From: Nitrospinota bacterium
GTDB lineage: Bacteria > JADFOP01
Direction of reading: 5' to 3'
Length of the DNA stretch: 64,000 nt
NCBI GenBank assembly: GCA_022562795.1
Contig: JADFOP010000003.1
Span: 25,197 to 89,196, forward strand
The translations under genes and the position numbers were made by a program. Under the pieces are notes generated by a model. The model was given only the letters and a program-made list of their open reading frames with translations, was not told where the DNA came from and searched no databases. This document shows, piece by piece, positions 4,606-63,315 of the stretch (position 1 is the stretch's first letter; each line of letters begins with the position of its first letter).

Positions 4606-4665
4606 TTATGTTAGTCCTCCTTTCGGTCGACACCCGTAATGTGCCTCATCGAGGCACGCGGGGCG

Positions 4666-6561: not shown

Positions 6562-6569
6562 CTCCCTTT

Positions 6570-8180: not shown

Positions 8181-8215
8181 CGTGCCACCGCCTCTCTTAG
8201 GTCCAAGCAATGTTT

Positions 8216-11482: not shown

Positions 11483-11490
11483 CTCCGCTC

Positions 11491-12495: not shown

Positions 12496-12521
12496 GGGCT
12501 GAACACCCCCAGTACCGGCAC

Positions 12522-13991: not shown

Positions 13992-14050
13992 GAGGTAGGA
14001 CCTCCGCTAAAATGCAGCCTTTTTGCGTTTTCACCTCGCCCCGGCGGCCT

Positions 14051-14473: not shown

Positions 14474-14522
14474 GGATGTACCTATAAGATAAAGGCGTTT
14501 GCTACGCTCTTCAAGATTAAAG

Positions 14523-15383: not shown

Positions 15384-15832
15384 CGGTTTCGAATACCCTG
15401 TGGGGGGTTGTAAGCCTCGGGAGGGGCAGGCCAGGCGACTCGTCGAAGAGATATCATACCATTTCGCTTGACGCGCATCAAGAAAAAATACCTCTGGCAA
15501 ATATTGATGCTGAGTTTTAAATAACTGGATGTAACTGCTCAATTAAGCAATGAAAACAAACCTACGCCTCCATCCTTTTCCCACTTTGAAAAAGAAGATT
15601 GGTGAAGGGCGCCGGTTCGGCCGGTCGGACCGAGGATCTTCCAACCCTGCTGCCTATTCCTTGAGCAATCTGGATCACCGGGCTGCCTCACTGTAACCCT
15701 TTAGAATCCCGCCATTTATATACTTCCCCTCAGCTACCCTGCCCCACTGGGTAGCATCCATAGCCCCAGCAGAGGAAGATATGGGCGCCCGAAGTTTTTC
15801 ATTATCAAGCCATTAGAGGTCCTTCAGCCCTT

Positions 15833-45424: not shown

Positions 45425-45500
45425 GGAGGGAACGGGAGAAGAGGGTGGACGATAGAGCGACGCTCGCTCTTTCACTAGCCCCAGATTGGGAGTTCAACCG

Positions 45501-46160
45501 ATGATGATCGAACAGACCACGAATGGCATAGACCTTCGCACCTTTATCGTTCTGGATAACCTGCAGTACCAGCTCGCCTCCTTTATTGGCACGACCGCCC
45601 GTGGGTTTTTGCCCATCGGGGGGATGGCGAGCCTATTCGTCGAGATCGCCCCAGGGATCGCCATCAACCGGCTGACCGACGTGGCCCTCAAGGCCACCAA
45701 CGTCAAGCCCGCCATGCAGATCGTGGAGCGTGCCTACGGGCTTCTGGAGGTTCACTCCGAAAGCCAGGCCGACGTACGCCAGGCGGGCCAGGCCATCCTC
45801 GATGACTTGGGCCTCCAGGAAAGAAACCGCCGCAAGCCCCGCACCGTCTCGACCCAGATCATCCGCAACGTAGACGACTATCAGGCCCAACTCATCAACC
45901 GGGAGCGCCACGGTCAGATGCTCATACCTGGCCAGACCCTTTACATCCTGGAGGTGGAGCCAGCGGGCTACGCTGCGCTGGCCGCCAACGAGGCTGAGAA
46001 GGCAAGCAACGTCAACCTGGTAGACGTGAGGCCCTTCGGGGCCTTTGGGCGACTCTACCTGGGCGGTGAGGAGCGCGACGTTGTGGTCGGCAGCGAGGCG
46101 GCCCTTCGGTCCCTGGAGATGGTGGATGGCCGCGAGGTCGCCGAGGGGACTGAGAGATGA
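45501..46160 (+). CDS. divergent tandem-BMC-domain shell protein (BMC-T-like)
   Basis: Two successive segments fit the BMC-domain pattern ([27 protein letters not shown]...[11 protein letters not shown] and [27 protein letters not shown]...[14 protein letters not shown]). GGGAG RBS before ATG 45501. Confidence 0.5.
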
Positions 46161-46240
46161 GCCGAAGAAGAAAAGGAAAAAATGGATCGCCGGCCAAGCG
46201 AACCCGCGATTTCAATAAAGGAGGGGGAGGAGGTGAGGTC

Positions 46241-47413
46241 ATGAACGAACTCGAGCAGACCGAAATCCTGGAACGCTCTCGGACTATGACACCCGATTTG
46301 GCATCCGTGTCATCCAGAGTAGCATCCCCATCGGAGTCGTATCAATTACCCATCGGCTCGACCATGACCGCGAAGGATTTGCTCATGGAGCCTGAAATTG
46401 GCGGCACCACAAAGCGGGGCGGGCGGAACGGAGCAAGCGTACGCGAAGATTGGATCGCCCTGGAGCAGGTCGTGGTGACCAGCCCCAAGATGAAGCAGGT
46501 ATTCAAGCTTGCCAGAACCCTCGGCCGTGCCGACCGGGCGACGGTGCTTATTACCGGCGAGACGGGCACTGGCAAAGAGGTGATAGCCAGGACCATTCAT
46601 CTTATGAGCCCCCGGCTCGACCAGCCCATGGTAGTGGTCAACTGCGGGGCCATCCCGAAGGAACTCATGGAGGCCGAGCTACTGGGCTACGCGAAGGGGG
46701 CCTTCACGGGGGCGGCCACGGGCGGCAACAAGGGCAAGGTGGAGTTGGCGCATAAGGGCACCCTCCTTTTAGATGAGATTGCCGAGCTGCCTCATGGAGC
46801 CCAGACTATCTTGTTGCGTATTCTGGACGGCCAGCCCTTCTACCCGGTGGGTTCCAACCGGGAGGTTAGAGCCGACGTACGGGTCATTGCCGCTACGAAC
46901 CGAGACCTTGAAGCCGCCGTGTCCGAAGGCTCCTTCCGCGAGGACCTTTTCTACCGGCTGAACGTGGCCCATATGCATCTGCCGCCGCTTAGGGAGCGGG
47001 CCGATGATATTTTGCCCCTGGCCAAAAGCTTCCTGAACGAGTTCAACCAGCTATACGGCAAGGCATTTCGGGAGATCACCCAGCAGGGGGCTGCTCGTCT
47101 GCTTTCATACCCCTGGAAGGGGAACGTCCGGGAGATAAAAAACGCCATCGAGCGGGTTGTGGTTTACGAAGATGACACAAAGGTAAGGGCCGAGCACTTA
47201 ACTTTTCTGGAACCCGGCCCGGCAGAAACGACCAACGGGGCCTCGGCATTCACTCTGCCGCGCGAGGGCGTTGATATTGAGAGCGTCTTCAGAAGCCTCA
47301 TCGTTCAGGCCCTCGATAGAACCGAAGACAATCAGTCAGAGGCCGCCCGCTTGCTGGGCATCTCGCTGCCCACGCTCCGATACCGAATGGCGAAATACGG
47401 TCTGAAAAACTAA
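46241..47413 (+). CDS. sigma-54-dependent transcriptional activator (enhancer-binding protein)
   Basis: AAA+ sigma-54 interaction domain (GETGTGKEV Walker A, GAFTGA sigma-54 contact motif, ESELFGH-like EAELLGYAKGAF, DVRVIAATNRDL). C-terminal Fis-type HTH (SEAARLLGISLPTLRYRM). Strong AAAGGAGGGGGAGGAGG RBS. No obvious N-terminal receiver domain. Confidence 0.85.
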   Translation: MNELEQTEILERSRTMTPDLASVSSRVASPSESYQLPIGSTMTAKDLLMEPEIGGTTKRGGRNGASVREDWIALEQVVVTSPKMKQVFKLARTLGRADRATVLITGETGTGKEVIARTIHLMSPRLDQPMVVVNCGAIPKELMEAELLGYAKGAFTGAATGGNKGKVELAHKGTLLLDEIAELPHGAQTILLRILDGQPFYPVGSNREVRADVRVIAATNRDLEAAVSEGSFREDLFYRLNVAHMHLPPLRERADDILPLAKSFLNEFNQLYGKAFREITQQGAARLLSYPWKGNVREIKNAIERVVVYEDDTKVRAEHLTFLEPGPAETTNGASAFTLPREGVDIESVFRSLIVQALDRTEDNQSEAARLLGISLPTLRYRMAKYGLKN

Positions 47414-47538
47414 GAGGGAGCAAGGGGTATGACGTGGTGCTCGGCAGTGGGGTGGCCTGAATATAAACCGATGGGTAGCAAGGAACGCCGGCCAATCTCG
47501 CCGGCAATTTCAAGGACCAATAGAGAGGAGGTAAAACC

Positions 47539-47844
<306 letters not shown>

Positions 47845-47852
47845 GGCAGCCC

Positions 47853-48152
47853 ATGCTTATCGGCCGCATTGTAGGCACGGTCGTGGCCACCCAGAAGGAG
47901 CCGCGACTTGAAGGCCTCAAGTTACAAGTGGTCAAGCGGGTGGAAATCGAAGGCAGCCTCTCGGAGACCTTCGTGGTGGCGGTCGACGCCGTGGGGGCAG
48001 GTCAAGGTGAAACAGTCCTCTACGCAACCGGCAGCGCCGCCCGCCAGACCCCCCTGACTGATGGACGACCCGTCGATGCGGTGGTCATGGCCATCGTCGA
48101 TACCTGGGACGTGGACGGACGGGTCGTCTATGACAAGCAGAAGGAAGGGTAA
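47853..48152 (+). CDS. BMC-P vertex (pentamer) protein, EutN/CcmL/PduN family
   Basis: MLIGRIVGTVVATQKEP...GSAARQ...DAVVMAIVD pattern of EutN/CcmL. Confidence 0.85.
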   Translation: MLIGRIVGTVVATQKEPRLEGLKLQVVKRVEIEGSLSETFVVAVDAVGAGQGETVLYATGSAARQTPLTDGRPVDAVVMAIVDTWDVDGRVVYDKQKEG

Positions 48153-48163
48153 GGGAGATAGCC

Positions 48164-49594
48164 ATGCAGATGTCAGAGGCTCAGGTGGCCTCCATTGTTG
48201 AGAAGGTGCTTCAGAGGATGGAGAGCCCCCCTAGGGCCGAGCCCGCTCCTGCCTCGGCCGGAACGGAAGGCCCCGGAATTTTCGCCACCCTCGACGAGGC
48301 AGTCTCGGCTGCTGAGAAGTCCCAGCGGGACCTCGTGGCTCTCGGCCTCGCGGTTCGGGTAGCCATGGTGGAGTCGATCCGCCTGGTCTGCCTCGAGCAC
48401 CTCGAGAGCCTCGCCCGGATGGCCGTTGAGGAGACGGGATTCGGCCGCCTCGAGGACAAGGTAGTCAAGAACCGCCTTGTGACCGAGCTCACACCGGGGC
48501 CCGAGTTCTTAACAACTGAGGCGTTTAGCGACGACTCCGGCCTCACGATTCAGGAGCGGGCCCCATACGGGGTATTGAGCGCTATCACCCCTTCGACGAA
48601 CCCCTCTTCCACCATCATAAACAACGCAATCGCCATGGTATCGGCCGGCAACGCGGTCGTCTTCAACCCCCATCCGGGGGCGGTGGGCGTCTCGCTGCGA
48701 ACCATTGCGCTGATGAACGAGGCTGCCGTCTCGGCCGGAGGTCCCCCGACCTGCTTTACTTCCCCGGCAGAGCCATCGGTCGAGACGGCCCAGTCTCTCA
48801 TGCGCCACCCCAAGGTGGCCCTCAACGTGGTAACCGGCGGGCAGGCCGTCGTAGAGGAAGCCCGCCGGGCCGGAAAGCGGGTCATCGGCGCCGGGCCCGG
48901 CAACCCCCCCATCGTGGTGGACGAGACGGCGGAGATCGACCGGGCCGCCCGCGACATCGTGGCCGGGGCGAGCTTTGACAATAACGTCGTCTGCACAGAC
49001 GAGAAGGAACTCTTTGTCGTGGCCTCCGTGGCCGATGAGCTCAAGGACCGGATGAAGGCCCACGGAGCGTACGAGCTCAGCCCTCACCAGACCGAGCGGC
49101 TCTCTAGGCTCGTGATCGAGCGGGAGGCCCCGACGCGGCAGTCCTCGGCCATTAACCGGGCCTTGGTGGGCAAGGACGCCCAGGTGATCCTGAGCGAGAT
49201 CGGCGTGGATGCGCCCGAGACGGTGCGGCTTATTCTCTGCGAAACCGACCGGGACCACCCCTTCGTCTGGACTGAGCTCCTCATGCCCATCCTGCCCCTT
49301 GTGCGGGTGGAAGATGTGGAGGAGGCCATCGGCCTGGCCGTCCAGGCCGAACACGGCTTTGGCCACACGGCAGTGATTCACTCGACCAACGTGGGCGCCA
49401 TGGACAAGATGGCCAGGGATATCAAGACCGCCCTCTTCGTCAAGAACGGCCCGAGCTATGCCGGCCTAGGTGGGGGCGGGGCGGGATACACGAGCTTTAC
49501 CATCGCCACACAGACCGGCGAAGGGCTCACCACCCCCTACACCTTCACCCGCGAGCGTCGATGCACGCTTGTGGGTTCGTTTCGAATCGTATGA
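48164..49594 (+). CDS. CoA-acylating aldehyde dehydrogenase (PduP/EutE-like) with N-terminal encapsulation-peptide-like helix
   Basis: ALDH fold with a catalytic Cys region (FDNNVVCTDEKE). N-terminal amphipathic helix SEAQVASIVEKVLQRM, followed by a Pro/Ala linker PPRAEPAPASAGTEGPG, as in BMC-targeted AldDHs. Confidence 0.85.
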   Translation: MQMSEAQVASIVEKVLQRMESPPRAEPAPASAGTEGPGIFATLDEAVSAAEKSQRDLVALGLAVRVAMVESIRLVCLEHLESLARMAVEETGFGRLEDKVVKNRLVTELTPGPEFLTTEAFSDDSGLTIQERAPYGVLSAITPSTNPSSTIINNAIAMVSAGNAVVFNPHPGAVGVSLRTIALMNEAAVSAGGPPTCFTSPAEPSVETAQSLMRHPKVALNVVTGGQAVVEEARRAGKRVIGAGPGNPPIVVDETAEIDRAARDIVAGASFDNNVVCTDEKELFVVASVADELKDRMKAHGAYELSPHQTERLSRLVIEREAPTRQSSAINRALVGKDAQVILSEIGVDAPETVRLILCETDRDHPFVWTELLMPILPLVRVEDVEEAIGLAVQAEHGFGHTAVIHSTNVGAMDKMARDIKTALFVKNGPSYAGLGGGGAGYTSFTIATQTGEGLTTPYTFTRERRCTLVGSFRIV

Positions 49595-50253
49595 CGCCCG
49601 CGCGCCCGACACCTCGACCCATCTACCCAGGCCAGGACTTCCGTCCTGTCCTGACGCGCCTGCCTGAGCCCTACCTGGTGGAGGAGTGGGCCGTGGCGGC
49701 CGTGGAGCTCAACCGGATCGCCCCTGGATTCACCGCGTGTGACGCCATGCTGAAGGCCGCTCCGGTAACGCTCATAGAGGCCGCGCCCCTCTGCCCGGGC
49801 AAGTACCTGATCATTGTCGGCGGCGAGGTGGCGAGCGTGGAGAGCGCGTACGAGGCGGGCCTCGCCGTTGGCGGGACGGCCGTCATCGATCGGCTCCTGC
49901 TCGCCAAGGCCGATCGGCAGGTCTTTCCGGCCCTCGTGGGCGAGTCCAAACGGTCGGTGACCTTCACCGAGGGCGACAGCTTGGGGGTCATTGAGACCTG
50001 CTCGGCCGCCTCGGCCATCCTCGCCGCCGACGCCGCCTGCAAGGCCGCCGGAGTGCGTCTCTACGAATGCCACATCGCCCAGGGCCTCGGCGGAAAGGGC
50101 TATCTTTACTTCTTCGGAGAGCTCAGTGCCGTGGAGGCGAGCGTGGAAGCAGGAGGGGCCATCGTATCACCGGATGGACTCCTCGTCGGCACCGAGGTCA
50201 TACCCGACCCGGATGCAATTCTCGTTGAGCGTCTTATGAGAGAGGTTCCCTAA
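49591..50253 (+). CDS. tandem-BMC-domain shell protein (BMC-T, PduT-like)
   Basis: Two BMC domains (AAVELNRIAPGFTACDAMLKAAPVTLIEAAP... and LGVIETCSAASAILAADAACKAAGVRLYECHIAQGLGGKGYLYFFGELSAVEASVEAG). ATGA overlap with the AldDH stop. Confidence 0.7.
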   Translation: MTPARPTPRPIYPGQDFRPVLTRLPEPYLVEEWAVAAVELNRIAPGFTACDAMLKAAPVTLIEAAPLCPGKYLIIVGGEVASVESAYEAGLAVGGTAVIDRLLLAKADRQVFPALVGESKRSVTFTEGDSLGVIETCSAASAILAADAACKAAGVRLYECHIAQGLGGKGYLYFFGELSAVEASVEAGGAIVSPDGLLVGTEVIPDPDAILVERLMREVP

Positions 50254-50256
50254 GCG

Positions 50257-50613
50257 ATGTTCCTCGCTGATGTTCTCGGCAGAGTCGTGGCCACCCGCCG
50301 ATACGATAAAACTATAGGCTACCGGCTACTTTGGGTTCAGCCTTTGGACCACCACGGGGAGGCGGCAGGCCAGCCCGAGGTGGCACTCGACACCGTCTTG
50401 AGCGGAAGCGGCGACCGGGTCATCTGCGTAATCGGTCGGGAGGCCTCCATGGCCATGGACCTCCCCGGCCGGTTCAGCCCCGTGGACCTGGCTATTGTTG
50501 GTATCGTCGACCGGGTAGACGTGGATAATGGTGAGCCGGACAACGGGAATGCCAACGGTAATTCCAATGGACATGCCAACGGTAATTCCAATGGGAATGC
50601 CAATGGGCATTAA
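50257..50613 (+). CDS. BMC-P vertex protein with Asn/Gly-rich C-terminal repeat tail
   Basis: MFLADVLGRVVATRR ... DRVICVIGREAS ... DLAIVGIVDRV EutN/CcmL pattern, plus a C-terminal NGNANGNSNGHANGNSNGNANGH tail. Confidence 0.8.
   Translation: MFLADVLGRVVATRRYDKTIGYRLLWVQPLDHHGEAAGQPEVALDTVLSGSGDRVICVIGREASMAMDLPGRFSPVDLAIVGIVDRVDVDNGEPDNGNANGNSNGHANGNSNGNANGH
50545..50610 (+). repeat. short coding tandem repeat (aatgg[ga][ac]atgccaacggtaattcc) encoding N-G-N/H-A-N-G-N-S
   Basis: Direct reading: ggaatgccaacggtaattccaatggacatgccaacggtaattccaatgggaatgccaatgggcat. Confidence 0.6.
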
Positions 50614-50637
50614 TCGAGGAAGAGGGTTCTCAAGCTG

Positions 50638-50910
50638 ATGCTCCTCGCTCAGGTAGTCGGTACGGTGAACTCAACGGTCAAGCAACCTGCATTGATCGGA
50701 CACACCGTTCTTTGCGTGGAGCCCCGCGACGAGGCCTGGCAGTCGACGGGAGAACCCTCCTTCCTCGCGATCGATTTCGCACTGGCCGGGGTGGGCGACC
50801 GGGTGCTGGTGGTGCGCGAGGGCGGGGCGAGCCGTCTCACCATGGGGGTGGAAGACGCCCCCGTCCACGCCGTCGTCGTAGGCATCGTGGATGCCGTCGA
50901 AGGGAGATAG
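50638..50910 (+). CDS. BMC-P vertex protein (third paralog)
   Basis: MLLAQVVGTVNSTVKQP...DRVLVVREGGASR...HAVVVGIVDAV EutN/CcmL pattern. 90 aa. Confidence 0.8.
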   Translation: MLLAQVVGTVNSTVKQPALIGHTVLCVEPRDEAWQSTGEPSFLAIDFALAGVGDRVLVVREGGASRLTMGVEDAPVHAVVVGIVDAVEGR

Positions 50911-50917
50911 TGAGGTT

Positions 50918-51724
50918 ATGGGAATGGCCATCGCCGCACCCTGGCAGACCGAGAAAATGCTCCGAGAGGAAATGTGCCGCATAGGACGGCTCATCTATGA
51001 GCGGGGCTTCATCGCCGCCACCGACGGCAACCTCTCGGTGCGTCTCGACGACGAACGGGTCCTCTGCACTCCGTCTGGCCTCTGCAAGGGATTTCTCGAG
51101 CCGTCAGACCTGGTGGTGGTGGACTTTGATTTGAAGCTGCTGAAGGGGGTCGGTCAGGCTAGCACTGAGATACTTATGCACTTGGGGGCATACCGGGCCC
51201 GGCCCGAAGTTCGCGCCGTCATTCACGCTCACCCGCCCACGGCGATCGCCTTCTCCATCGGGGGGCGGTCTGAGGCTCTTGCCGGGGCTTTCTTGCCGGA
51301 GGTCGTCTACACCCTTGGGGCCATCCCGACGGCCCGCTACGCGACCCCCGGCACGGCTGATGTCCCGGCGAGCCTCGAGCCCTACTGGGCCAAGTGCGAC
51401 GCCATCATCCTCGACCGACACGGCTCCATCACGGTGGGAGAGACCCTGTTGGAGGCCTACCTGAAGCTCGACAAGGTGGAGCACGCCGCCAAGGTGACCT
51501 TCATGGCTACGCTGCTGGGAACGCCCCGGCCCCTTCCGGCCAAGGAGGTTGAAAAGCTCGCCCTTCAGGGAGCGGCCAGGGGCTACCCGACCGAGTGCTC
51601 GGCCTGCGCCGACGGCGGGGTCTGCGATCGGGAGGCGCCCGAGGGTGATCGCGGCCTATCCGATGCGGTCGAGGAGTCTATCGTCGAAGAGGTGCTTCGG
51701 GCTGTCCGGAAGGCGGCAGGGTAA
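50918..51724 (+). CDS. class II aldolase/adducin-family enzyme (L-fuculose/rhamnulose-1-phosphate aldolase-like) with C-terminal encapsulation-peptide-like helix
   Basis: GNLSVRLDD...VLCTPSG and AVIHAHPPTAIAFS (Zn-binding His) typical of FucA/RhaD/AraD. C-terminal extension ends in the amphipathic LSDAVEESIVEEVLRAVRKAAG after a Cys-rich linker. Confidence 0.8.
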   Translation: MGMAIAAPWQTEKMLREEMCRIGRLIYERGFIAATDGNLSVRLDDERVLCTPSGLCKGFLEPSDLVVVDFDLKLLKGVGQASTEILMHLGAYRARPEVRAVIHAHPPTAIAFSIGGRSEALAGAFLPEVVYTLGAIPTARYATPGTADVPASLEPYWAKCDAIILDRHGSITVGETLLEAYLKLDKVEHAAKVTFMATLLGTPRPLPAKEVEKLALQGAARGYPTECSACADGGVCDREAPEGDRGLSDAVEESIVEEVLRAVRKAAG

Positions 51725-51775: not shown

Positions 51776-54700
51776 CTATCCCCCCTCCTCCATTAGCTTG
51801 ACGACCTGGCCCTCCAGGACCGATTCACCCCGTTGATTCACGATCTCAATAGAGAGCGGCACGATGGGAGGCCCCTGGCCTTTCTTCGAGCGGCGAATGT
51901 CTGACGGCTCAGGAGCAGTCACTGTCACGGTGAGGTCGTCGCCCGCCTCGATGGGGGCACCGAAGGCCGAGACCTCGGCGCTTAGAAGGAGGTGGCCCGG
52001 TGCGCTCTCGGCTGAGGCCATGGCCATGGTTCCGATAGCGAGCAGGGCGCTCAGCTGGTGCAGGTCGAGCGCCCCGAAGAGGGCTCTGGTCGCACGGACG
52101 ATCTCGTCGGTGATGGGTTTGGTTATGCTTTGGACGCGGGGGCTTGCCGGGTTGGTGAAGTCGTGAATGACGTCGGGCACTGATGGGGCGACGTCGTCGG
52201 CCCACGCCCTCACCCAGGGAAGCTCCGCTGGGGCCGGGACAACCGGCTCTGGGCGGGCCTGGCGCCGGATGGTCGTCTCGCCCTCGCATACCACCGTCCC
52301 CGCCTGGTTGAGGGCCTTTAGAGCCAGGCGGGCTCGGCCGTCGTCGGAGACCTCCTCGACGTAGGCCACGGAGGTCAGCGTGTCGTCGAAAGCCACCGGG
52401 GCGCGGAAGCGCACCGTTAGGGTTTCTTCCGTATCTCCGGGCAGCAGCCGCCCCAGGCTCGCGAGCATAAGAGAGGTGGTGAGCAGCCCGTGGGCCACGA
52501 GCCCGCCGAAGCGGGAGGCATCGGCGTAGGCCTTATCGAGATGGTAGCGGTTCCGGTCGCCCGAGGTCTTTGCGAAGGTCTGAACCATCCATTCCCTAAC
52601 CGGGGTTGCGTAGCCGACCAGTGTCTGGCCGGGGAAGACGGCTGTGCCCAGCTGCTCCGTGCCGCCGGGCCTCAGGGCGAGCAGGAGCCGCTCGCGGGCG
52701 GTGACGTAGCGCTCGGCCTCATCGTCGGTGAGGTGGTCGGCCTTGAAAGCCCTCTCAAGCTGGCCGTAGTATATACGCGCCGTGGCGGCGTCCACGAGCT
52801 CAGGCTGGTTGGTCACCGGGTCGTTGTAGGCCACCGCCCCGAGCTTCCGCTCCTGGTCGGCCGTGGCGTATAGCTCGAGTATCTCCAGCGCCCTCTCGAC
52901 CGAGTTGGTCCACCGGGAAAGGAACGCGGCCCCTTCAGGGGTTGAGAGGTCCTCCGGGGGGGTCCCGGCCCTGGGCGGGTTCATGATGGCGGCCACGGCG
53001 TCGGCCTGCTCAGGGGTGACGAGCTTGCCGTGAAAGCCGAGGTTGGCAACGAAAGAAGCCTCGTCCTCGACCTTTTCCGGCTCACTCGGCCCGTCGATTG
53101 CGTCGATGTCGGCCTGTGCAGTGGCGGCGACCAGCGCCGAGTGGTAATAGAGGTAGCCCTTGGTTGCGGGGTCAGCGAGGTCCTCTTTAGGCATGTCTTG
53201 GGCGAGATCGAGGATGAGCCACATCATGCGGCGGCTCGCCTCTGCGATGGCCTCTGAGTCCCGCTCCACGCTTTCGGGCTTCGTAAGCCTCACCCCTAGG
53301 GCCAGGGCGCCCACCTCCAGGCCCACCTCGCGCTCGGCTTCGGTAAGCAGCCCTGCGGCCTCGCGGACCGTGGCGACATCGTCCACCTCAGGGAGGACGA
53401 TGCCGTGGATGGTCTCGCCGAGGGCTCCAAGGAGGCTGGCCAGCCCGGATGCGGCCCCCTCGCCGCGTAGGTCGGCCTGGCAGGCTACCACCTTTCCTCC
53501 TCCCTCCGATTTCAAGGCCTCGGCCAAAGCCTCGTGGGTGGCTTCTTGTCCGGGCGCGAGGAGCCCATCGACGTCGCAGATGATCATGTCGGCCCTAGAA
53601 GCTACGGCCACTCGGACGGATTCGAGGTCGTCGCCTTTGGCTTCGACCACCGAGCGGGCGAGGACGACGGGCCGGGGGATGAAGACGGTGGGGGGCAAGA
53701 TGGGCCGGGCCTCTGCGGCAAGCCGCTTGAGCTCCTCGAGGTCGAAGGGCTCGATGGGCTCGTATTCCAGCCGCCTTCGGACCGGCGACGGGAAGTGCGA
53801 GGCGTGTCGGGCGATGCCTTCGATGTGGGCCGGATGGACGCTCCATTTGCGGTGGATGCCGATGGAGATGGCCTTAGTGGTGTCCTGCTCCGTATCGTCA
53901 GCGTTGAGCTTTACCGTGATACCCGTGCCGGCGACCTTCCCGGTTGCGCGGGCCGCCTCGACGATGGTCAGCAGCGGGAAGCGCATGTAGGTGTACTGCT
54001 GCTGCTGGACGATGCTTCGGCCCCCCGTGGCCGCCGTGTAGTCGACGACACCCAGGTTTATCTCCTCAACTTCGGGCGCCGCGGCGAGTATCTGGCGGGC
54101 CTGGAGAATGGCCCCCGGCAGCTCGGTAAGGACGAAGACCTTGTGGCGAGCGGGCCGCCAGCCCCGCTCGGCCTGGATGGCTCTGAGTATTCTGACTGCC
54201 ACGAGCACGTCGTCCGCATCCTTGACCTTCGGCAGATAGATGCCGTCGATTAAGTCCCCCACCTCCCGGATCACATGGATGTAGTCGCCTGCCGACCAAC
54301 TCGTCCGAAGGTTGTTGGGCCTCACAAGGATCATCTGGTCGGGGGGAAGGCGGAGGTCTGGCTTGAGGGCGAGGCCGCCTTCGGTTGGCTCGAAGGCTTC
54401 GGCCAGCTGGTCGGCCCGGCCCTCGGGCATGGCGTGCTCCTGGAGGAAGGCTACGTCCTCAGGGGTCAAGACCTGGCCGCGGAAGGCCCTAATCAGCAGT
54501 GCGATGACCGGGCGGGCGATCTCCTTGCGGGTGGTCGCTACGGCATCTTCGATGTCTAGCAGAAGAATGTGAGCATCCGATTGGGCCGCCTTGTGCAAGA
54601 AGTACCAGTTGTCGCCTGGGAAGACGTGCTCGATGGTCCGGGGGCGGAGCTCCCAGCTCAAACGATCTATGACCGCCTCTCGGCTCGCCTTAGGGTCGAG

Positions 54701-54799
54701 GGCCTGCAAGGCCTCCAACCGCTCGGCGACCTCTGCCTCAGCTTCGGCGTCGTGGCCACCGTACGCCTCAACAATCTCGCTCCAGGCTTGATCCGTCAT
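51776..54799 (-). CDS. mega-fusion: two CitE/HpcH-type (malyl/citramalyl-CoA lyase-like) domains + MaoC-like (R)-hydratase hot-dog + second hot-dog
   Basis: Start trimmed to MTDQAWSEIV (AAGGAA RBS at 54804-54810). CitE motif RTIEHVFPG...HILLLDIEDAV. A second degenerate CitE-like repeat (ADMIICDVDGL...IHGIVLPEVDDV). MaoC core NRYHLDKAYADASRFGGLVAHGLLTTSL...FRAPVAFDDTL, followed by a second hot-dog. The 104-codon ORF-track 5' extension is low-complexity. Confidence 0.7.
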   Translation of the reverse strand: MTDQAWSEIVEAYGGHDAEAEAEVAERLEALQALDPKASREAVIDRLSWELRPRTIEHVFPGDNWYFLHKAAQSDAHILLLDIEDAVATTRKEIARPVIALLIRAFRGQVLTPEDVAFLQEHAMPEGRADQLAEAFEPTEGGLALKPDLRLPPDQMILVRPNNLRTSWSAGDYIHVIREVGDLIDGIYLPKVKDADDVLVAVRILRAIQAERGWRPARHKVFVLTELPGAILQARQILAAAPEVEEINLGVVDYTAATGGRSIVQQQQYTYMRFPLLTIVEAARATGKVAGTGITVKLNADDTEQDTTKAISIGIHRKWSVHPAHIEGIARHASHFPSPVRRRLEYEPIEPFDLEELKRLAAEARPILPPTVFIPRPVVLARSVVEAKGDDLESVRVAVASRADMIICDVDGLLAPGQEATHEALAEALKSEGGGKVVACQADLRGEGAASGLASLLGALGETIHGIVLPEVDDVATVREAAGLLTEAEREVGLEVGALALGVRLTKPESVERDSEAIAEASRRMMWLILDLAQDMPKEDLADPATKGYLYYHSALVAATAQADIDAIDGPSEPEKVEDEASFVANLGFHGKLVTPEQADAVAAIMNPPRAGTPPEDLSTPEGAAFLSRWTNSVERALEILELYATADQERKLGAVAYNDPVTNQPELVDAATARIYYGQLERAFKADHLTDDEAERYVTARERLLLALRPGGTEQLGTAVFPGQTLVGYATPVREWMVQTFAKTSGDRNRYHLDKAYADASRFGGLVAHGLLTTSLMLASLGRLLPGDTEETLTVRFRAPVAFDDTLTSVAYVEEVSDDGRARLALKALNQAGTVVCEGETTIRRQARPEPVVPAPAELPWVRAWADDVAPSVPDVIHDFTNPASPRVQSITKPITDEIVRATRALFGALDLHQLSALLAIGTMAMASAESAPGHLLLSAEVSAFGAPIEAGDDLTVTVTAPEPSDIRRSKKGQGPPIVPLSIEIVNQRGESVLEGQVVKLMEEGG

Positions 54800-54980
54800 C
54801 ACAGTTCCTTCGGGTAACACGTCATGGGGATACCCAATCGGCCTGTGCCGTCGTGCGCTACGCTCGGTGAAAAGGTCTCGAAGCGGTGACGCGGTTGCCC
54901 CGGCTTTACTGTAACCGAGGTTTTCAGGTGGTTGACCCAAATTATAACCCGAATCCGAGGCGCTTTCAAGCGCTAGAGCC

Positions 54981-55009
54981 TTGACGGACCCCCAAGGCGT
55001 CCGTATAGT
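54981..55009 (+). promoter_or_regulatory. sigma-70-like promoter
   Basis: TTGACG-N17-TATAGT ~30 nt upstream of the 55039 ORF. Confidence 0.4.
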
Positions 55010-55038
55010 GGGCCTTTGCCACATCGAGGAGGTCGTGC

Positions 55039-55509
55039 ATGGAGCGTGGGGCATTGAGGTTTTGGCGGTGGGGCGCTGTCGCCCTGTTTGCTCTCGGACT
55101 GCTAATACCATTCCCCTCTGCGGCAGCCGACCTCTCGAAGGAAGAGGCGGTTAAGAAAGTCATCGAGAAGGTTGTTCTGCCGAGCTCCAATCGAGAGACC
55201 CTCCGGGCGCATTTTTGGCCCCATCCCCTCCGTCCTGGTGATGTGATAACCGTATTCAGACCTGATGGCGAGCGCTGGCCCATCAAAGAGCCGACATGGT
55301 TCTTCTGGATCGACGACCTGCCCGAGGCTCTCTTCGGCCACCCCGCACGTTTTGTCTACGTCGATGTTGCGACGGGGGCCATTACCGTTCAACGTGCGGA
55401 TTCCTGGCCGGCCCTGAACGGCGAGACCTTGTGGGGATTTGCCGAGGAGCGAGAGGACCCACGGTTCGTTATCTATCCGCTTAAGCGCCCTGGGGGTCCA
55501 GGGAAGTGA
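55039..55509 (+). CDS. secreted PepSY-like small protein
   Basis: Signal peptide. KEEAVKKVIEKVV ... ARFVYVDVATGAITV resembles the PepSY beta-hairpin C-terminus. Confidence 0.4.
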   Translation: MERGALRFWRWGAVALFALGLLIPFPSAAADLSKEEAVKKVIEKVVLPSSNRETLRAHFWPHPLRPGDVITVFRPDGERWPIKEPTWFFWIDDLPEALFGHPARFVYVDVATGAITVQRADSWPALNGETLWGFAEEREDPRFVIYPLKRPGGPGK

Positions 55510-57170
55510 GCGGGGTGCGTTGTTCACAGGGACTGGTTCTGCTGCTGGCTTTGGCGGTGGGCCTGCCGACTTCGGCGTGGGCAGGGAAACACTGCCCAAA
55601 GGTACCCTGCATTGATGGGGCTCCGCCGAAGAAATTCGCCCTAATCATTGATGGACATAACACTCTCGACTTTAACCCTAACTCAGTCGGACTGTATGAC
55701 ATCCTCAAGGGTTTGGGCTACGAGGTCACCTTCCTCTCCCCGCGGTTCCAGGAGACAGGCTATAAGGGCAAGGCCAATGGAACCACGACTCTTCCTGCTA
55801 TCAAGGCGGAATTCGAGGCCCTGGGGGCTAAGGCCCGCTGCTGCGATGATGTTGTCATCGCTTTCTTTGCCCATGGTTGGTCCGGCCTTTCGATCTATCC
55901 TCCTGACAAGGCCGCTGAGGAGGCAAAGAAGTGGAACCCGGACAAGGACCCAGGAAAGTGGCACCCCAGCCTTTCGTTGAACCCCTACGAGAAAAGCAAG
56001 ACCAGCGGAAAAGAAGCCGGAGATAAAAAAGGGGGTTCCCTCACTTTCAACAAGCTTGCGAAATGGCTCGATCTGGTCAAGTCGTGCGACGTCAAGATCT
56101 ACATCAATTCCTGCTACAGTGGGTCGTTCCAAGGCTTGAAGAACTCTAAGCAGCGGGACAACTGCTACTGTCGAACGGTGTATACTAGTTCAAAACCAGA
56201 GCTGGTTTCTTATGGGCCTAGTAGCTTCATCTCAGGCTACGGCGAGGTGCCAAATAAGAAGGGAGATCCTACGTCCTTTCACGGGGTCTTTGTCAAGGCG
56301 GTAAAGAGTCAAAAGGATCTAATAAAAAAGTTAGAGAAAAGAACGGGGAAAAAGCTACGGATTATCGATACACCGCAGATATATGAAGGAGACATAGTGC
56401 TTTGTTTAGACGGCGACGGCGACAACCTCTGCGACGGGCTGGAGAGTTTCTATGGCACCGACCCGCTGGTGGCGGATTCGGACGCTGATGGAGTGAGTGA
56501 CGGTCAGGAGGTGAGTGACGGCACCAAGCCCCTTATTCGCGACAGCGACGGGGACAAGCTCTCGGACGGCGAAGAGAAAAAGATGGGAACTAATCCCAAT
56601 AAGAAAGATACCGATGGCGACGGCCTGAACGATAAATATGAAATGTTTGCAGGGACCAACCCCCTCCTCTCAGACACAGACGGAGACGGCATCTCAGACG
56701 GGGAGGAAGTGCTGCGCCTCCACACGAACCCGCTACGTGCGGATACCCCCGCTAAGAAGAAGACCGCCGGGCTCATCCCCAGCGATGTAGAGTCCATGGT
56801 CGCTGTCATCCCTCCTGGGCCCATGGTCGAGGCGTACATAGCCATGGCGGTGGAAGCACACGACCGGTTCCGCGACCTCGACGCGGCCCACGACTGGCTG
56901 GAGAGGGCGTTGGAGCTCGATCCGGATAACTATGTGGCCAAGGGTATCCTTGACAGGGTTAAGGCAGAGGAGCAGCAGGTAGGCCTCCAGCGGGCCGGCG
57001 TGGTCTTGGGCGCCCTTCAGCAGATGCTGGCCGAACAGGCACGGAGAGAGCAAGAGCAGCAGGAACATGAGGAGTACAAGGAGAGCCACCCAGGGGGGGA
57101 GCGCCATCCGGGCGGCGGGGAGCGCCCTCCCGTTGAGGAGTGGGACCCGCCACCAAAGGAGGACTACTGA
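55506..57170 (+). CDS. secreted clan-CD (caspase/legumain-fold) peptidase-like protein with thrombospondin-type-3 Ca-binding repeats and C-terminal helical domain
   Basis: Signal peptide LVLLLALAVGLPTSAWA. Putative His/Cys dyad context FFAHGWSG ... IYINSCYSGSF. Five DxDxDGxxDxxE repeats (DGDGDNLCDGLE, DSDADGVSDGQE, DSDGDKLSDGEE, DTDGDGLNDKYE, DTDGDGISDGEE). C-terminal TPR-like/helical tail rich in E/Q. Confidence 0.55.
   Translation: MSGVRCSQGLVLLLALAVGLPTSAWAGKHCPKVPCIDGAPPKKFALIIDGHNTLDFNPNSVGLYDILKGLGYEVTFLSPRFQETGYKGKANGTTTLPAIKAEFEALGAKARCCDDVVIAFFAHGWSGLSIYPPDKAAEEAKKWNPDKDPGKWHPSLSLNPYEKSKTSGKEAGDKKGGSLTFNKLAKWLDLVKSCDVKIYINSCYSGSFQGLKNSKQRDNCYCRTVYTSSKPELVSYGPSSFISGYGEVPNKKGDPTSFHGVFVKAVKSQKDLIKKLEKRTGKKLRIIDTPQIYEGDIVLCLDGDGDNLCDGLESFYGTDPLVADSDADGVSDGQEVSDGTKPLIRDSDGDKLSDGEEKKMGTNPNKKDTDGDGLNDKYEMFAGTNPLLSDTDGDGISDGEEVLRLHTNPLRADTPAKKKTAGLIPSDVESMVAVIPPGPMVEAYIAMAVEAHDRFRDLDAAHDWLERALELDPDNYVAKGILDRVKAEEQQVGLQRAGVVLGALQQMLAEQARREQEQQEHEEYKESHPGGERHPGGGERPPVEEWDPPPKEDY
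56401..56720 (+). repeat. coding repeats for TSP3-like Asp-rich Ca-binding motifs
   Basis: Recurring gacggcgacgg / gatggcgacgg / gacggagacgg ... tcagacgg units at ~36-45 bp spacing. Confidence 0.55.
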
Positions 57171-57951: not shown

Positions 57952-58602
57952 ATGAAGCTCTTCATCGATAGCGCCGACATTGACGAGATAACCGAGGCCC
58001 AGGCCCTGGGGGTCCTCGACGGGGTGACGACCAACCCCTCTCTCATCGCCAGGACGGGGAAGCCCTTCGAGCAGGTGGTGCGCGAAATTCTAAAGGTCAT
58101 CGATGGCCCGGTGAACCTTGAAGTGGTTGGGACCGACGCCGAGACCATGGTGGCCGAGGGGCGAAAGCTCGCCGCCTTCGGCGAAAATGTGGTTGTGAAA
58201 ATTCCCATGCTGCCCGAGGGCCTAAAGGCCGTGAAGCGTCTGACCTCCGAGGGGTTCAAGACCAACGTGACGTTGATATTCTCCCCCTCCCAGGCGTTGC
58301 TCGCCGCAAAGGCCGGGGCGAGCTACGTGAGCCCCTTCGTCGGCCGCCTGGACGACATCAGTCACGAGGGCATGGAGATCGTCGCCCAGATTCGTGAGAT
58401 CTACGACAACTACGACTACGGAACCGAGATTCTCGCGGCCTCTCTTCGCCACCCTATCCACTTTATAGAGGCGGCCCGGCTCGGGGCCGATGTGGCGACG
58501 CTGCCGCTCAAGGTCATTCTCAGCCTCACCCAGCACCCTCTGACCGACAAAGGCTTGGCAACCTTCCTGGCCGACTGGGAGAAGGTGCAGGATAAGTTTT
58601 AG
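57952..58602 (+). CDS. tal: transaldolase (short-form, FSA/TalC-like)
   Basis: [13 protein letters not shown]...[11 protein letters not shown]...VVVKIP (Schiff-base Lys)...SPFVGRLDD. Confidence 0.9.
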
Positions 58603-59893: not shown

Positions 59894-60307
59894 TCAGATG
59901 AGTTCGGTGATGTCTACACCGAGGGCCTTAGCGACCCGCCTGTAGGTCTTGATCGTCGGGCGATAGTCGGGATCTTCGATCTGACTGACCCGAGTCTGAC
60001 CCACGCCAAGCCTCTTGGCGAGTTCTTTCTGAGTGATTTTTTTCCGCTTCCGCACCCTCTTGATACGATTATCGAGGATTGTCTTACGGGCCTCCTCGAG
60101 GGAAATCACATCGTCCTTCTGGTCGGCCATAACGGCTTTAGCCTCGCGCAAATCTGTATAGTCTTCGATGAGCTCTATAATCTCTTCCCACACCTCAGCG
60201 GGGATGACCACCATCTGGTGTCCCTTAATTTCCACCTGGCCGACCGGCTCTGGAACCTCAAACCCATGACGCGGTTGCGCCTGTTTTTTTGTCTTCGTTG
60301 TTCTCAT
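59894..60307 (-). CDS. HTH-XRE antitoxin (HigA-like)
   Basis: C-terminal Cro/C1 HTH ITQKELAKRLGVGQTRVSQIE. Located immediately downstream of a RelE-family toxin gene (toxin-first order, as in higBA). Confidence 0.7.
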   Translation of the reverse strand: MRTTKTKKQAQPRHGFEVPEPVGQVEIKGHQMVVIPAEVWEEIIELIEDYTDLREAKAVMADQKDDVISLEEARKTILDNRIKRVRKRKKITQKELAKRLGVGQTRVSQIEDPDYRPTIKTYRRVAKALGVDITELI

Positions 60308-60346
60308 GCTGTCCCCTCCTGTTTAATGCCCTTTAAAACCTAAATA

Positions 60347-60619
60347 TCAATATGCGCCCTCCCTAGTTTTTGCTATGACGACTGTCACAGTCCTTTGCTT
60401 ATCGTCAATCTTGTAAATTACTCTGTATCGACGCCCTATCCAAATTCGCCAGTAGTCGTCCTCGAGCTTCTTGCAACCTGGTGGGCGGGGGTTGTTCGCC
60501 AGCCTTTCGATGGCATCGAGAACCCGCTCCCCTATATTTTTTGGAAACCTTGCAATACTCTTTTCTGCGCTTCTCTTTACGATGACCGTGTATCGTTTCC
60601 TTTTCATCTTGTCTTTCAT
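60347..60619 (-). CDS. RelE/ParE-superfamily toxin (HigB/RelE-like mRNA interferase)
   Basis: 90-aa basic protein. YRVIYKID...TVTVVIAKTRE matches the RelE/StbE C-terminal pattern. Confidence 0.7.
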   Translation of the reverse strand: MKDKMKRKRYTVIVKRSAEKSIARFPKNIGERVLDAIERLANNPRPPGCKKLEDDYWRIWIGRRYRVIYKIDDKQRTVTVVIAKTREGAY

Positions 60620-60677
60620 CTCCCGTTGCCTCTTACTTGTAATATAAGGGTTATCATGGTATTTATCAAGTTCATAT

Positions 60678-60690
60678 TATGATAATCATA
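60678..60690. promoter_or_regulatory. palindromic operator candidate TATGAT-a-ATCATA upstream of the toxin gene
   Basis: 6-bp inverted arms ~60 nt upstream of the toxin start in an AT-rich promoter region. Confidence 0.35.
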
Positions 60691-60815
60691 GTATTATTTA
60701 TTATGCTTTGCAAAAAAATCCCCCATCATCTGTCTCCATACCATGAGGCGATTTCTAAGAAGCCTTGGGTGTCTACCGAAGGTAGCTTGCTGTCTCGTTC
60801 TCTTGTTCGGTGCTG

Positions 60816-60841
60816 TCCGCCTCAGGCGGACCTGAGGCGGA
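60816..60841. other. perfect 11-bp-stem hairpin TCCGCCTCAGG-cgga-CCTGAGGCGGA
   Basis: Direct reading in a non-coding AT-rich spacer. No flanking T-tract. Confidence 0.35.
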
Positions 60842-61224
60842 ATGTACCTGCATGGTAATTCATACGCGTTAAATCAATTAGGAGAAATACCGAATATTCA
60901 AGTAGAGGTGAAAGTGTTCTTGGGAAGGGACTTTCGAAGCCTTATCGGCTTCATAACCCTTACCGCCATCGACCTCATAGCTCTGCTAATCGAACAAATG
61001 GAATCAAACAGTTCCTAAAGCGGCAACGTAGAGGTTCAGCAGCTTGACCGTAGCACAATCACCCCGTCACACCGTATGTATATTTGCCAGAGGGTTTAAT
61101 TTAGCCCGCTCCACGCTCAATGTGATGCCCGAAGCCCCGCTGGGGCGGTTGCAAAGAGGACCGTCCGGGCTGTATGATGGGCCCTGGATAGCTAGCCGTG
61201 AGATGACCCATGCCCCGACCATAC

Positions 61225-62319: not shown

Positions 62320-63209
62320 ACCGCCGCTTCTTACTCCCCGTGCTCGCCTGGCTCATGCTGGGATTGTTCCTTCCACCGATTCCTGATCGGGCGGCGACAG
62401 CCGTGCTCGTCCTTCCAGGCGGCGATAAGGTGGAAGGCCGCGTTATCGTTCGAGACGGCACAGTCACGGTCGTCGGCGAAGGGCTGTTTCAGTTTCCCGC
62501 CGGGAGGGTAAAACACGTCGAAGCCAATTCCCCTAAGGAGTGGGTCCTCCCGTTCAACGGCACGCCGCTCTATTCAGGTTCAGACCTCGATGAGGGCTTG
62601 CCTGCTCTGACCCTCGATGCCGGCTCCTCGGTTGTGGTCGTGGACTCGTTAGAGGGAGCCAGACAGGTGGAGACCTACGCGGGGCCTTTGTGGGTGGCGG
62701 CGGGACAGCTTGCCAAGCGCTACACTTTTGAGAACAAGGAGGTTTTGCCCATGGTGGACATGGAGACCGAAAAGGGGACCATCTCGTTGGAGCTGTTTGA
62801 GGACGACGCCCCCAATACGGTGGCCAATTTCGTATCATTGGCCGAGAAGGGCTATTATGACGGGCTTACGTTCCACAGGGTCCTCAAAGACTTTATGATC
62901 CAAGGCGGCGACCCCAGGGGAGACGGCTCCGGTGGACCCGGCTACCGCATTCGCGACGAGATAAACCCCCGCAAACACGACCGCGGGGTCCTCAGCATGG
63001 CCAAGACCCAAGCTCCTGACTCTGGCGGCTCGCAGTTCTTCATCACCCACAAGGCGACCCCCTGGCTCGACGGAAAACACACAGTCTTCGGGCGCGTGAC
63101 CGAAGGGATGGAAGTGGTCGACGCCATCGAGCAGGGCGACAAAATCATATCGGTCAAGGTAACCTCCAAGCGCGACCATCCCTACGAGCCTGAAACCCTC
63201 CCGGAGTGA
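62316..63209 (+). CDS. cyclophilin-type peptidyl-prolyl cis-trans isomerase with N-terminal extension
   Basis: Signal peptide. Cyclophilin core [15 protein letters not shown] ... GVLSMAKT ... GSQFFIT ... [12 protein letters not shown]. Confidence 0.85.
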
Positions 63210-63315
63210 GAACGGAAAAGCTCTCCGAACGGGCATCGCGCCCGTTATTACCGGCAGGGAGGGCATTTAGAATTGTCCCGGAAAGCGGGAAACCCTGCCC
63301 ACTACAATAGCAGAT

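Follow-up and report, generated by a model that had tools for sequence, protein, structure and literature searches.

A conserved single-chain fusion of tandem CitE-type lyase modules with a MaoC-type hydratase in Nitrospinota, a candidate bifunctional enzyme of ethylmalonyl-CoA-type chemistry

We have analysed a stretch of 64,000 nucleotides from a Nitrospinota bacterium (contig JADFOP010000003.1, positions 25,197 to 89,196 of the forward strand; hereafter the window), in which a single gene on the minus strand encodes a protein of 1007 residues that joins two CitE-type acyl-CoA lyase modules to a MaoC-type double hot dog hydratase. The fusion is real and conserved, neither a chance open reading frame (ORF) nor the product of a frameshift. 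With moderate confidence, we believe that it is a free-standing cytosolic bifunctional enzyme, a mesaconyl-CoA hydratase plus beta-methylmalyl-CoA lyase, whose lyase site would be a composite of the two CitE repeats. The chemistry would most likely correspond to two consecutive steps of an ethylmalonyl-CoA (EMC)-type pathway carried out by non-orthologous enzymes. The identity of the substrate, the pairing of barrel 1 with the lid of barrel 2, and the physiological pathway in the Nitrospinota genome are what we infer. The gene and its parts are as follows (AF2, AlphaFold2; pLDDT, the per-residue confidence of its models).

54941..54969, minus strand: predicted sigma-70-like promoter TTGAAA-17-TATAAT (consensus match at 11 of 12 positions), ca. 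140 nt 5' of the start codon
54806..54811, minus strand: ribosome-binding site GAAGGA, 6 nt before the ATG at 54799, read directly from the sequence
51776..54799, minus strand: tandem-CitE/MaoC fusion protein, complete coding sequence of 1007 codons plus stop (ORF, Pfam, NCBIfam, database identity)
54650..54799, minus strand: N-terminal three-helix segment, residues 1-50 (conservation; pLDDT 84-92)
53810..54640, minus strand: CitE/Mcl-type TIM barrel 1, residues 54-330 (alignment to 5UGR and 4L9Y)
53651..53809, minus strand: proline-rich inter-barrel linker, residues 331-383, confidently modelled (conservation and AF2)
52964..53650, minus strand: CitE-type TIM barrel 2, degenerate, residues 384-612 (hhalign, profile search, conservation)
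52670..52963, minus strand: lid domain, residues 613-710 (modelled secondary structure, invariant columns)
52259..52633, minus strand: catalytic hot dog 1, PhaJ-like, residues 723-847 (Pfam MaoC; alignment to PhaJ1 5CPG)
51779..52258, minus strand: hot dog 2, lacking the conserved hydratase motif, residues 848-1007 (conservation, AF2, Foldseek)

The frame is open from 51776 to 55111 on the minus strand (1111 codons), and the ATG at 54799 gives the 1007-aa product. This product is 100% identical to a database protein (P0001). In its 90%-identity cluster there are 38 sequences, which come from independent assemblies and in many cases have exactly 1007 aa. At NCBI these carry labels such as 'MaoC family dehydratase N-terminal domain-containing protein [Nitrospinota bacterium]' (MCH7767613.1) or 'aldolase/citrate lyase family protein'. 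A database search for the same architecture turned up about 45 further full-length homologues, with 60-82% identity and lengths of 1002-1026 aa, in NCBI, JGI, ENA and Logan assemblies. It is because of these homologues of similar length, together with the 38-member cluster, that we take the fusion to be conserved and not an artefact. The first-pass annotation of this DNA had already read the gene as encoding a single polypeptide, and the independent homologues of the same length exclude a frameshift-joined gene pair. That two or three separate genes were joined by an error of sequencing or assembly is a practically negligible possibility, also considering that the domain junctions are conserved and confidently modelled, save for a linker of seven residues (711-717) modelled as disordered between the lid and hot dog 1.

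The gene is predicted to be a monocistronic unit, because it has its own promoter and ribosome-binding site and lies between a convergent and a divergent neighbour. Sigma-70-like sites were found three times in the scanned region (0.3 expected from shuffles), and the one assigned to the fusion gene is adjoined by a divergent promoter-like site serving the plus-strand gene at 55039. The plus-strand genes on this side (55039-57170), which vary among syntenic loci, are two: an ORF of 156 aa that has no Pfam match and bears a hydrophobic stretch at the N-terminus, and one for a 554-aa protein with bacterial TSP3 (thrombospondin type 3) repeats. On the other side, the class II aldolase gene of a bacterial microcompartment (BMC) locus ends at 51724 and the stop codon of the fusion gene starts at 51776, which confirms the convergent arrangement described in the first-pass annotation. 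No intrinsic terminator was detected in the 51-bp gap between the two.

Pfam, NCBIfam, hhalign and Foldseek agree on the composition of the protein, two CitE-type modules plus a MaoC double hot dog, as had been proposed from the sequence alone. The Pfam matches, HpcH_HpaI in three stretches (E 3.4e-25) and MaoC_dehydratas over residues 725-819 (E 1.1e-14), support both assignments, and NCBIfam gave a malyl-CoA-lyase-like match on residues 175-352 and CitE/RipC-like matches on 397-609, with all scores well short of the equivalog cutoffs. Homology between the two CitE modules is seen with hhalign (probability 80%, E 1.6e-6). The AF2 model, built from 39 homologues, had a pLDDT of 84 and a predicted template modelling score (pTM) of 0.82. 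Searched against the PDB with Foldseek, it retrieved the malyl-CoA lyases 5UGR, 4L9Y, 4L7Z and 6KIN and, among hydratases with the double hot dog fold, Chloroflexus 4E3E, MeaC 8HGN and itaconyl-CoA hydratase 8KHG (E 1e-11 to 1e-8 for the double hot dog MaoC structures).

The CitE-like superfamily and the malate synthases share a conserved Glu44/Asp45 pair, Arg76 and the Mg2+ ligands Glu141 and Asp168 (MCLR numbering, PMC3832036). In barrel 1 this catalytic set is complete: E84/D85, R160, E226 and D253 align to the superfamily residues in 5UGR and 4L9Y and are invariant in 39/39 aligned homologues. The best sequence matches of barrel 1 are Mcl1-type malyl-CoA/beta-methylmalyl-CoA lyases (5UGR, 4L9Y; NF041626), and it has the Mcl-like loop after beta-6 plus a family-specific insert at about residues 100-155, with no lid following it. 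In barrel 2, Q441 stands in place of Arg76, R504 in place of Glu141 and G412 in place of Asp45, while the position of Asp168 is uncertain, with D531 nearby; these substitutions come from the hhalign comparison of module 1 with module 2 and from a module-2 profile against the PDB, both in agreement. The comparison of both repeats with Mcl and Ccl, recommended in the first-pass annotation, thus gives a complete repeat 1 and a degenerate repeat 2. The module-2 profile matched Mcl (5UGR, 4L9Y) and the acyl-CoA lyase PaCcl of P. aeruginosa (8KHL), with E about 1e-7, and barrel 2 also gave a weak 49-residue match to Haloferax AceB (3OYX). Its first half (residues 400-500) is the least conserved part of the fusion protein; residues 510-700 are among the best conserved.

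The well conserved tract includes the lid, made of three helices around a beta-hairpin (655-659 / 666-670) that is closed by the invariant D670 in the motif ELVDAATAR. In R. sphaeroides Mcl, Asp299 stands on the beta-hairpin of a C-terminal lid that covers the active site of the neighbouring subunit, and the lid residue is Asp in lyases and malate synthases but Glu in Mcl2-type thioesterases (PMC3832036); we count the Asp found here for the lyase reading. There is one lid per chain, carried after barrel 2. In our reading, each chain would form a single composite lyase site, in which barrel 1 provides the Mg2+ and oxo-acid site (E84, D85, R160, E226, D253) and barrel 2, as a catalytically dead scaffold, contributes the catalytic Asp (D670) through its lid. 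Such a site would be the intramolecular or head-to-tail version of the Mcl lid swap, a single chain mimicking trimeric Mcl, where each active site is covered by the lid of the adjacent subunit. The degeneracy of the second CitE module had been noticed in the first-pass annotation and stands, as Q441, R504 and G412 illustrate; what had been missed is that this module bears the sole lid with its invariant Asp. Since the only lid of the family sits there, the barrel 2 module appears to be degenerate yet indispensable.

When compared with Mcl1 (4L9Y from R. sphaeroides, 5UGR from Methylorubrum extorquens), the TIM barrel, the Glu/Asp pair, the Arg, the Mg2+-binding Glu and Asp and the post-beta-6 loop are alike, and so appears to be the topology of the modelled lid, with three helices and a beta-hairpin ending in Asp. 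However, identity is only about 20-30%, far below equivalog cutoffs, and the barrel is tandemly duplicated, with the catalytic barrel residues and the lid on different repeats. The fusion enzyme also has the 55-residue insert in barrel 1, about 50 conserved residues at the N-terminus and the hydratase fused on. Mcl is a hexamer with domain-swapped lids. The malate synthases (MSG, MSA and the haloarchaeal AceB 3OYX) likewise combine a related barrel with a C-terminal plug that bears a catalytic Asp; AceB gives the weak local match mentioned above, and at about 710 aa the CitE half is reminiscent of MSG in size. There is no Pfam malate-synthase match, though, and in MSG, which has its lid over its own barrel, the extra domain is inserted and does not form a second barrel (PMC3832036). 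A malate-synthase reading of the ELVDAATAR motif was not confirmed by the sequence: besides the missing Pfam match, no alignment extended over the lid.

In the hydratase half, hot dog 1 bears the motif SGDRNRYH, a hydratase-2 motif with D748 and H753 that aligns with the motif of PhaJ1 (5CPG; 35% identity, E 1.6e-17), while the conservation profile shows no conserved motif of this kind in hot dog 2. The order of catalytic and non-catalytic hot dogs is therefore reversed with respect to canonical hydratase-2 and Mch enzymes, where the motif-bearing domain comes second, and hot dog 1 aligns to the C-terminal half of canonical double hot dog hydratases (1PN2, 5I7N, 3KH8, HtdX). With Mch/MeaC (8HGN; Chloroflexus MaoC 4E3E) and Ich (8KHG) the fusion shares the double hot dog fold and the proposed type of reaction, and each of these enzymes partners a CitE-type lyase in its pathway. 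They differ in that the closest sequence relative of the hot dog of the fusion is the single-domain PhaJ1. The double hot dog would act as a PhaJ-like (R)-specific hydratase of a carboxylated 2-enoyl-CoA, using D748 and H753, most likely converting mesaconyl-C1-CoA to the 3-hydroxyacyl-CoA beta-methylmalyl-CoA. The Mg2+-dependent CitE/Mcl-type half would then cleave beta-methylmalyl-CoA into glyoxylate and propionyl-CoA, or catalyze the reverse condensation, and would probably also interconvert malyl-CoA with glyoxylate and acetyl-CoA.

The more distant relatives of the fusion (37-54% identity) form part of giant multi-enzyme polypeptides or have them as neighbours; the uninterrupted ORFs span from 2,100 to >5,250 codons. 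P0079 and the locus L019 (Omnitrophota JAGOSC010000005.1) are also among them, besides the following.

P0062, 2974 aa: a B12 mutase of the methylmalonyl-CoA-mutase type, an acyl-CoA dehydrogenase (ACAD) and the CitE-MaoC module
P0063, 2640 aa, Omnitrophota: the CitE-MaoC module and an MDR domain
L026, CAYLXA010000009.1: a single ORF (26-15799, >5250 aa) with 3-hydroxyacyl-CoA dehydrogenase (3HCDH), mutase, acyl-CoA synthetase, CitE-MaoC module and ACAD
L005, GCA_041643075.1: malate synthase, enolase and phosphoglycerate kinase, then the CitE-MaoC module, then ACAD and mutase
L031, Elusimicrobia JACQJO010000058.1: mutase genes, a CitE-3HCDH-MDR-MaoC polypeptide and an ACAD with a 145-residue N-terminal extension

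The MDR domain of P0063 scored 341.7 bits to TIGR01751, crotonyl-CoA carboxylase/reductase (Ccr; cutoff 378.6), and this Ccr-like domain comes directly after the MaoC domain. In L026, the mega-ORF is followed by a further polyprotein with phosphoenolpyruvate carboxykinase and triosephosphate isomerase. By their domain content, the polyproteins look like whole-pathway 'mega-enzymes' for an EMC-type route plus gluconeogenesis, and the enzyme classes of the EMC pathway from crotonyl-CoA to glyoxylate are all represented: Ccr, mutase, acyl-CoA dehydrogenase, MaoC hydratase and CitE lyase. Fusion or adjacency to EMC-type enzymes is in our opinion the strongest functional evidence, and it supports the assignment as mesaconyl-CoA hydratase and beta-methylmalyl-CoA (and malyl-CoA) lyase. 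When the mutase, ACAD and Ccr-like segments were searched by tblastn against the window and all the loci, matches appeared in L005, L019, L026 and L031 only. Full-text literature searches returned no description of these Omnitrophota pathway polyproteins.

The family itself is narrow: of 1.84 billion representatives of 50%-identity clusters, only 25 reach E<1e-30. In the GTDB species genomes, a scan located 24 loci, most of them in Candidatus Methylomirabilota (NC10) and the remainder in Nitrospinae, Omnitrophota, Elusimicrobia and unclassified metagenome-assembled genomes (MAGs). Some of the loci hold split forms (L006 6658-10151, L023 10085-13644, and also L021 and L030), in which a MaoC gene of 380-402 aa, 58% identical to residues 701-1007 of the window protein, immediately precedes a double-CitE gene of 716 aa. 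Fused and split copies coexist in NC10 bacterium CSP1-5 (L018 and L023, respectively). The split genes run MaoC first and double-CitE second, whereas in the fusion the lyase domains come first, and therefore the fusion did not arise by simple loss of a stop codon between the split genes. These adjacent orthologues, together with the EMC-pathway-type enzymes fused to the distant relatives, support the idea, already present in the first-pass annotation, of a hydratase feeding a lyase. The split forms mirror the known separate pairs Mch/Mcl, Ich/Ccl (RipB/RipC) and Rv2499c/Rv2498c, where a MaoC hydratase and a CitE-type lyase also act consecutively, but the fusion is one polypeptide in lyase-hydratase order and its lyase is a pseudo-dimer of ca. 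700 aa instead of a subunit of ca. 270-350 aa. On residue evidence the fusion probably works like the Mch/Mcl pair, being an orthologue of neither enzyme. All-versus-all clustering of the ORFs in 25 loci gave lineage-level synteny with NC10 housekeeping genes (Tol-Pal, MutY/NUDIX and similar) and no BMC or EMC genes. A set formed by a thiamine pyrophosphate (TPP) enzyme, an AP_endonuc_2 protein (hydroxypyruvate-isomerase-like) and an IclR regulator lies 0.1-6 kb downstream of the fusion homologue in NC10 loci. It occurs in four loci only, e.g., L001 (12555-16085) and, just downstream of the homologue, L012 and L018, and is a possible link to glyoxylate metabolism.

Several observations weigh against a mesaconyl-CoA hydratase and beta-methylmalyl-CoA lyase with a composite site. 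The hydratase half has no sequence-level match to Mch (8HGN, 4E3E) or Ich, the likeness being one of fold, and its closest relatives by sequence are the short-chain PhaJ enzymes, which act on crotonyl-CoA. With a score of 62 bits against a cutoff of 500 in the Mcl1 equivalog NF041626, the lyase half is not an Mcl1 orthologue. As for the lid, its pLDDT is moderate (55-76), neither the lid alone nor the module-2 profile aligned to any solved lid, and the equivalence of D670 with Asp299 is proposed from topology and invariance. An alternative base could be D353 in the inter-barrel linker, where F352-D353 is nearly invariant. The mutase and ACAD domains of the polyproteins score as generic MCM-like and FadE-like proteins and not as Ecm or Mcd equivalogs, and genes for Ccr, mutase or ACAD were found neither in the 64 kb of the window nor in the 10 kb on either side of the NC10 and Nitrospinota homologues.

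There are two other ways of pairing these activities. One is that the protein is a fused analogue of Ich/Ccl (RipB/RipC) for the degradation of itaconate or mesaconate (C5-dicarboxylates), the MaoC part being an itaconyl-CoA or mesaconyl-C4-CoA hydratase and the CitE part a (S)-/(R)-citramalyl-CoA lyase that yields pyruvate and acetyl-CoA. The pair of domains and the class of chemistry are those of Ich/Ccl, RipC_Ccl was the second-best NCBIfam match (NF038242, 71.6 bits), the structure of PaIch (8KHG) was retrieved by Foldseek and that of PaCcl by the module-2 profile. In addition, an IclR regulator, two family III CoA-transferases and an acyl-CoA ligase found elsewhere in the window (1513-9025) could activate a dicarboxylate. 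However, the RipC-like score is far below its cutoff of 375 and, like that of CitE TIGR01588 (75.4 against 443.4), falls mainly on the degenerate barrel 2, and the best matches of the intact barrel 1 are Mcl1-type lyases. In itaconate clusters, ict, ich and ccl are normally found side by side, and in about 30 loci no CoA-transferase adjoins the fusion gene; the fusion partners of the relatives are Ccr-like, mutase and ACAD domains and not CoA-transferases. We consider this explanation unlikely, and equally unlikely or slightly more so the other one, in which the two halves catalyze non-consecutive steps. The hydratase would then interconvert (R)-3-hydroxybutyryl-CoA and crotonyl-CoA (the CroR step that feeds Ccr), and the CitE half would be a malyl-CoA/beta-methylmalyl-CoA lyase or a malate-synthase-like enzyme. 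This would fit the similarity of the hot dog to short-chain PhaJ, the Ccr-like domain placed right behind MaoC in P0063, the annotation of two family members at JGI as 3-hydroxybutyryl-CoA dehydratase, and the lack of any crotonase (ECH_1) domain detected by Pfam in the L005, L019, L026 and L031 clusters. Against it, the MaoC-CitE pairing is kept in every lineage, with adjacent genes where it is split, as would be expected for consecutive or coupled reactions. The clusters also carry 3HCDH domains, which are usually (S)-specific, so that their product would not suit an (R)-specific MaoC hydratase, and the presence of a second, conserved hot dog points to a substrate pocket that has been remodelled.

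The convergent neighbour of the fusion gene raises the question of whether the enzyme belongs to a microcompartment. The locus involved is the following.

45486..51724, plus strand: Haliangium ochraceum (HO)-type BMC locus, separate from the fusion enzyme (gene content compared with PMC8217296)

It encodes a CsoS1D-like BMC-T, a sigma-54 activator, BMC-H, BMC-P, an acylating aldehyde dehydrogenase (AldDH), a tandem BMC-T, two BMC-P and the class II aldolase, with an RpiR regulator upstream. HO loci have a BMC-P triplet, BMC-H, BMC-T(dp), AldDH and class II aldolase and no signature phosphotransacylase (PMC8217296, Sutter et al.). None is encoded among the genes of this locus either, and by its gene composition we classify it as HO-type. 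Two of its enzymes carry what look like genuine encapsulation peptides (EPs), which are terminal amphipathic helices of ca. 15-20 aa on a flexible, poorly conserved linker (PMC8217296). The N-terminal one of AldDH (48164-48260, plus strand) reads MQMSEAQVASIVEKVLQRM and is followed by a Pro/Ala-rich linker, and the aldolase ends in an EP-like helix (51650-51724, plus strand), ...LSDAVEESIVEEVLRAVRKAAG, after an acidic spacer. The AldDH N-terminus QVASIVEKVLQRM and the aldolase C-terminus EESIVEEVLRAVRKA share an amphipathic 'SIVE.VL' motif. The sigma-54 activator (46157-47413, plus strand) has Sigma54_activat and HTH_8 domains and no detected receiver domain; it stands between the CsoS1D-like BMC-T and BMC-H genes and is missing at that position in the syntenic loci L004, L032 and L033. 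A scan for the sigma-54 promoter consensus found no site (TGGCAC-N5-TTGC) near the BMC locus or the fusion gene, and two elsewhere (3.4 expected). A few kb away there is a fructose-6-phosphate aldolase gene (57952-58602, plus strand; TIGR00875, 306 bits, above cutoff), kept syntenically in the window, L004, L032 and L033, which, with the RpiR/SIS regulator, fits a sugar-phosphate substrate for the compartment.

If the fusion were associated with the BMC, its N-terminal helix would target it to the HO-type compartment, or the enzyme would consume the acyl-CoA made by AldDH. Six assemblies (the window, L004, L032, L033, L034 and probably the contig of P0004) have the fusion and aldolase genes as convergent neighbours, with fusion proteins 68-100% identical, and the missing phosphotransacylase would also fit. 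P0004 and P0221 each come from a contig of 13,339 bp, probably the same one. Besides, residues 2-12 are amphipathic (W6, I9, V10, Y13) and 'SEIVEAY' loosely resembles the motif of the locus EPs. Nevertheless, an encapsulation peptide at this N-terminus, to which the first-pass annotation had noted a superficial resemblance, is not supported. The helix spans residues 2-12 and is followed by an invariant G14, a nearly invariant G15 and further ordered, conserved helices, without the low-complexity linker seen in the EP of AldDH. The segment of residues 1-50 (A12, G14, R27, L47 and W49 invariant) is conserved in all homologues, including those of NC10 and the split forms, which have no BMC; it lies hundreds of residues inside the Omnitrophota polyproteins; and the BMC-adjacent lineage has no N-terminal extension in comparison with the other members of the family.

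Nor is the wider functional link to the BMC, which had also been suggested, supported. The adjacency is confined to one Nitrospinota lineage that is syntenic throughout, from ExbBD/TonB to the fructose-6-phosphate aldolase and a phosphoribosyltransferase, i.e., including unrelated flanking genes, and in two loci a tetratricopeptide repeat (TPR) gene intervenes between the aldolase and the fusion genes. No BMC genes were detected near the homologues in about 18 NC10 loci, nor in the Omnitrophota, Elusimicrobia or other loci examined. Furthermore, the close clade of the AldDH (73-83%) appears only in Nitrospinota-type MAGs, its next relatives being in Bacteroidales and similar groups and not in NC10, a taxonomic spread different from that of the fusion family. 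For these reasons, and with the fusion gene on the opposite strand and having its own predicted promoter, we treat the adjacency as lineage synteny and a BMC-associated enzyme as very unlikely. The same low probability applies to the specific idea that the fused enzyme is, in this Nitrospinota lineage, a downstream partner of the compartment, condensing exported acetyl- or propionyl-CoA with glyoxylate. If true, it would link the compartment to a non-orthologous EMC-type or glyoxylate route and would explain why the fusion gene has stayed beside the BMC aldolase gene over such a range of protein identity. For the problem of the HO-type microcompartment, the result removes a tempting but unsupported cargo candidate.

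Elsewhere in the window, the CoA-transferase cluster mentioned above (1513-9025, minus strand) is 43 kb from the fusion gene. The two CoA-transferase genes are adjacent, the acyl-CoA ligase is AMP-forming, and three small Pfam-less ORFs complete the cluster. The best named matches of the transferases are formyl-CoA, succinyl-CoA:mesaconate and succinate-glutarate CoA-transferases, all far below cutoff, and the cluster could be a dicarboxylate-activating system. A LarC-like nickel-insertion protein adjoins an AIR-carboxylase/LarB-like gene of nickel-pincer cofactor synthesis (9507-11482, minus strand), and an RtcB RNA ligase adjoins archease (12522-14473, minus strand); both look like ordinary housekeeping pairs. 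The G+C content drops to 0.47-0.49 at 60000-61000 and 63000-64000, against a background of about 0.62-0.66, and the second dip overlaps a vitamin-K-dependent gamma-carboxylase-like HTTM gene (63316-63963, minus strand). These stretches are possibly foreign DNA.

The chemistry proposed for the fusion is known, and what is undescribed is the architecture: a pseudo-dimeric lyase with divided labour, the reversed order of the hot dogs and the fusion itself. Full-text literature searches found no description of the fusion or of the tandem-CitE arrangement, and in the BMC catalogue (PMC8217296) the terms 'MaoC' and 'citrate lyase' do not occur once, so that neither enzyme is among the BMC components listed there. 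The first-pass annotation had not recognized the architecture as described, which is right as far as papers are concerned, although the proteins had already been deposited under generic names. Natural fusions of hydratase with lyase, and of whole pathways, could be of practical use for engineering synthetic CO2-fixation and glyoxylate cycles. If the composite site is true, it would be a new way to build a CitE/Mcl-type site, with the catalytic barrel and the lid on separate repeats, and the tandem pseudo-dimer would replace the swapping of domains between identical subunits. In any case, the family marks a set of non-orthologous enzymes that apparently reconstitute EMC-type chemistry in Nitrospinota, NC10/Methylomirabilota, Omnitrophota and Elusimicrobia, groups in which the EMC pathway is not established. 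In Omnitrophota the whole route has apparently been joined in polypeptides of 2,600 to >5,000 residues.

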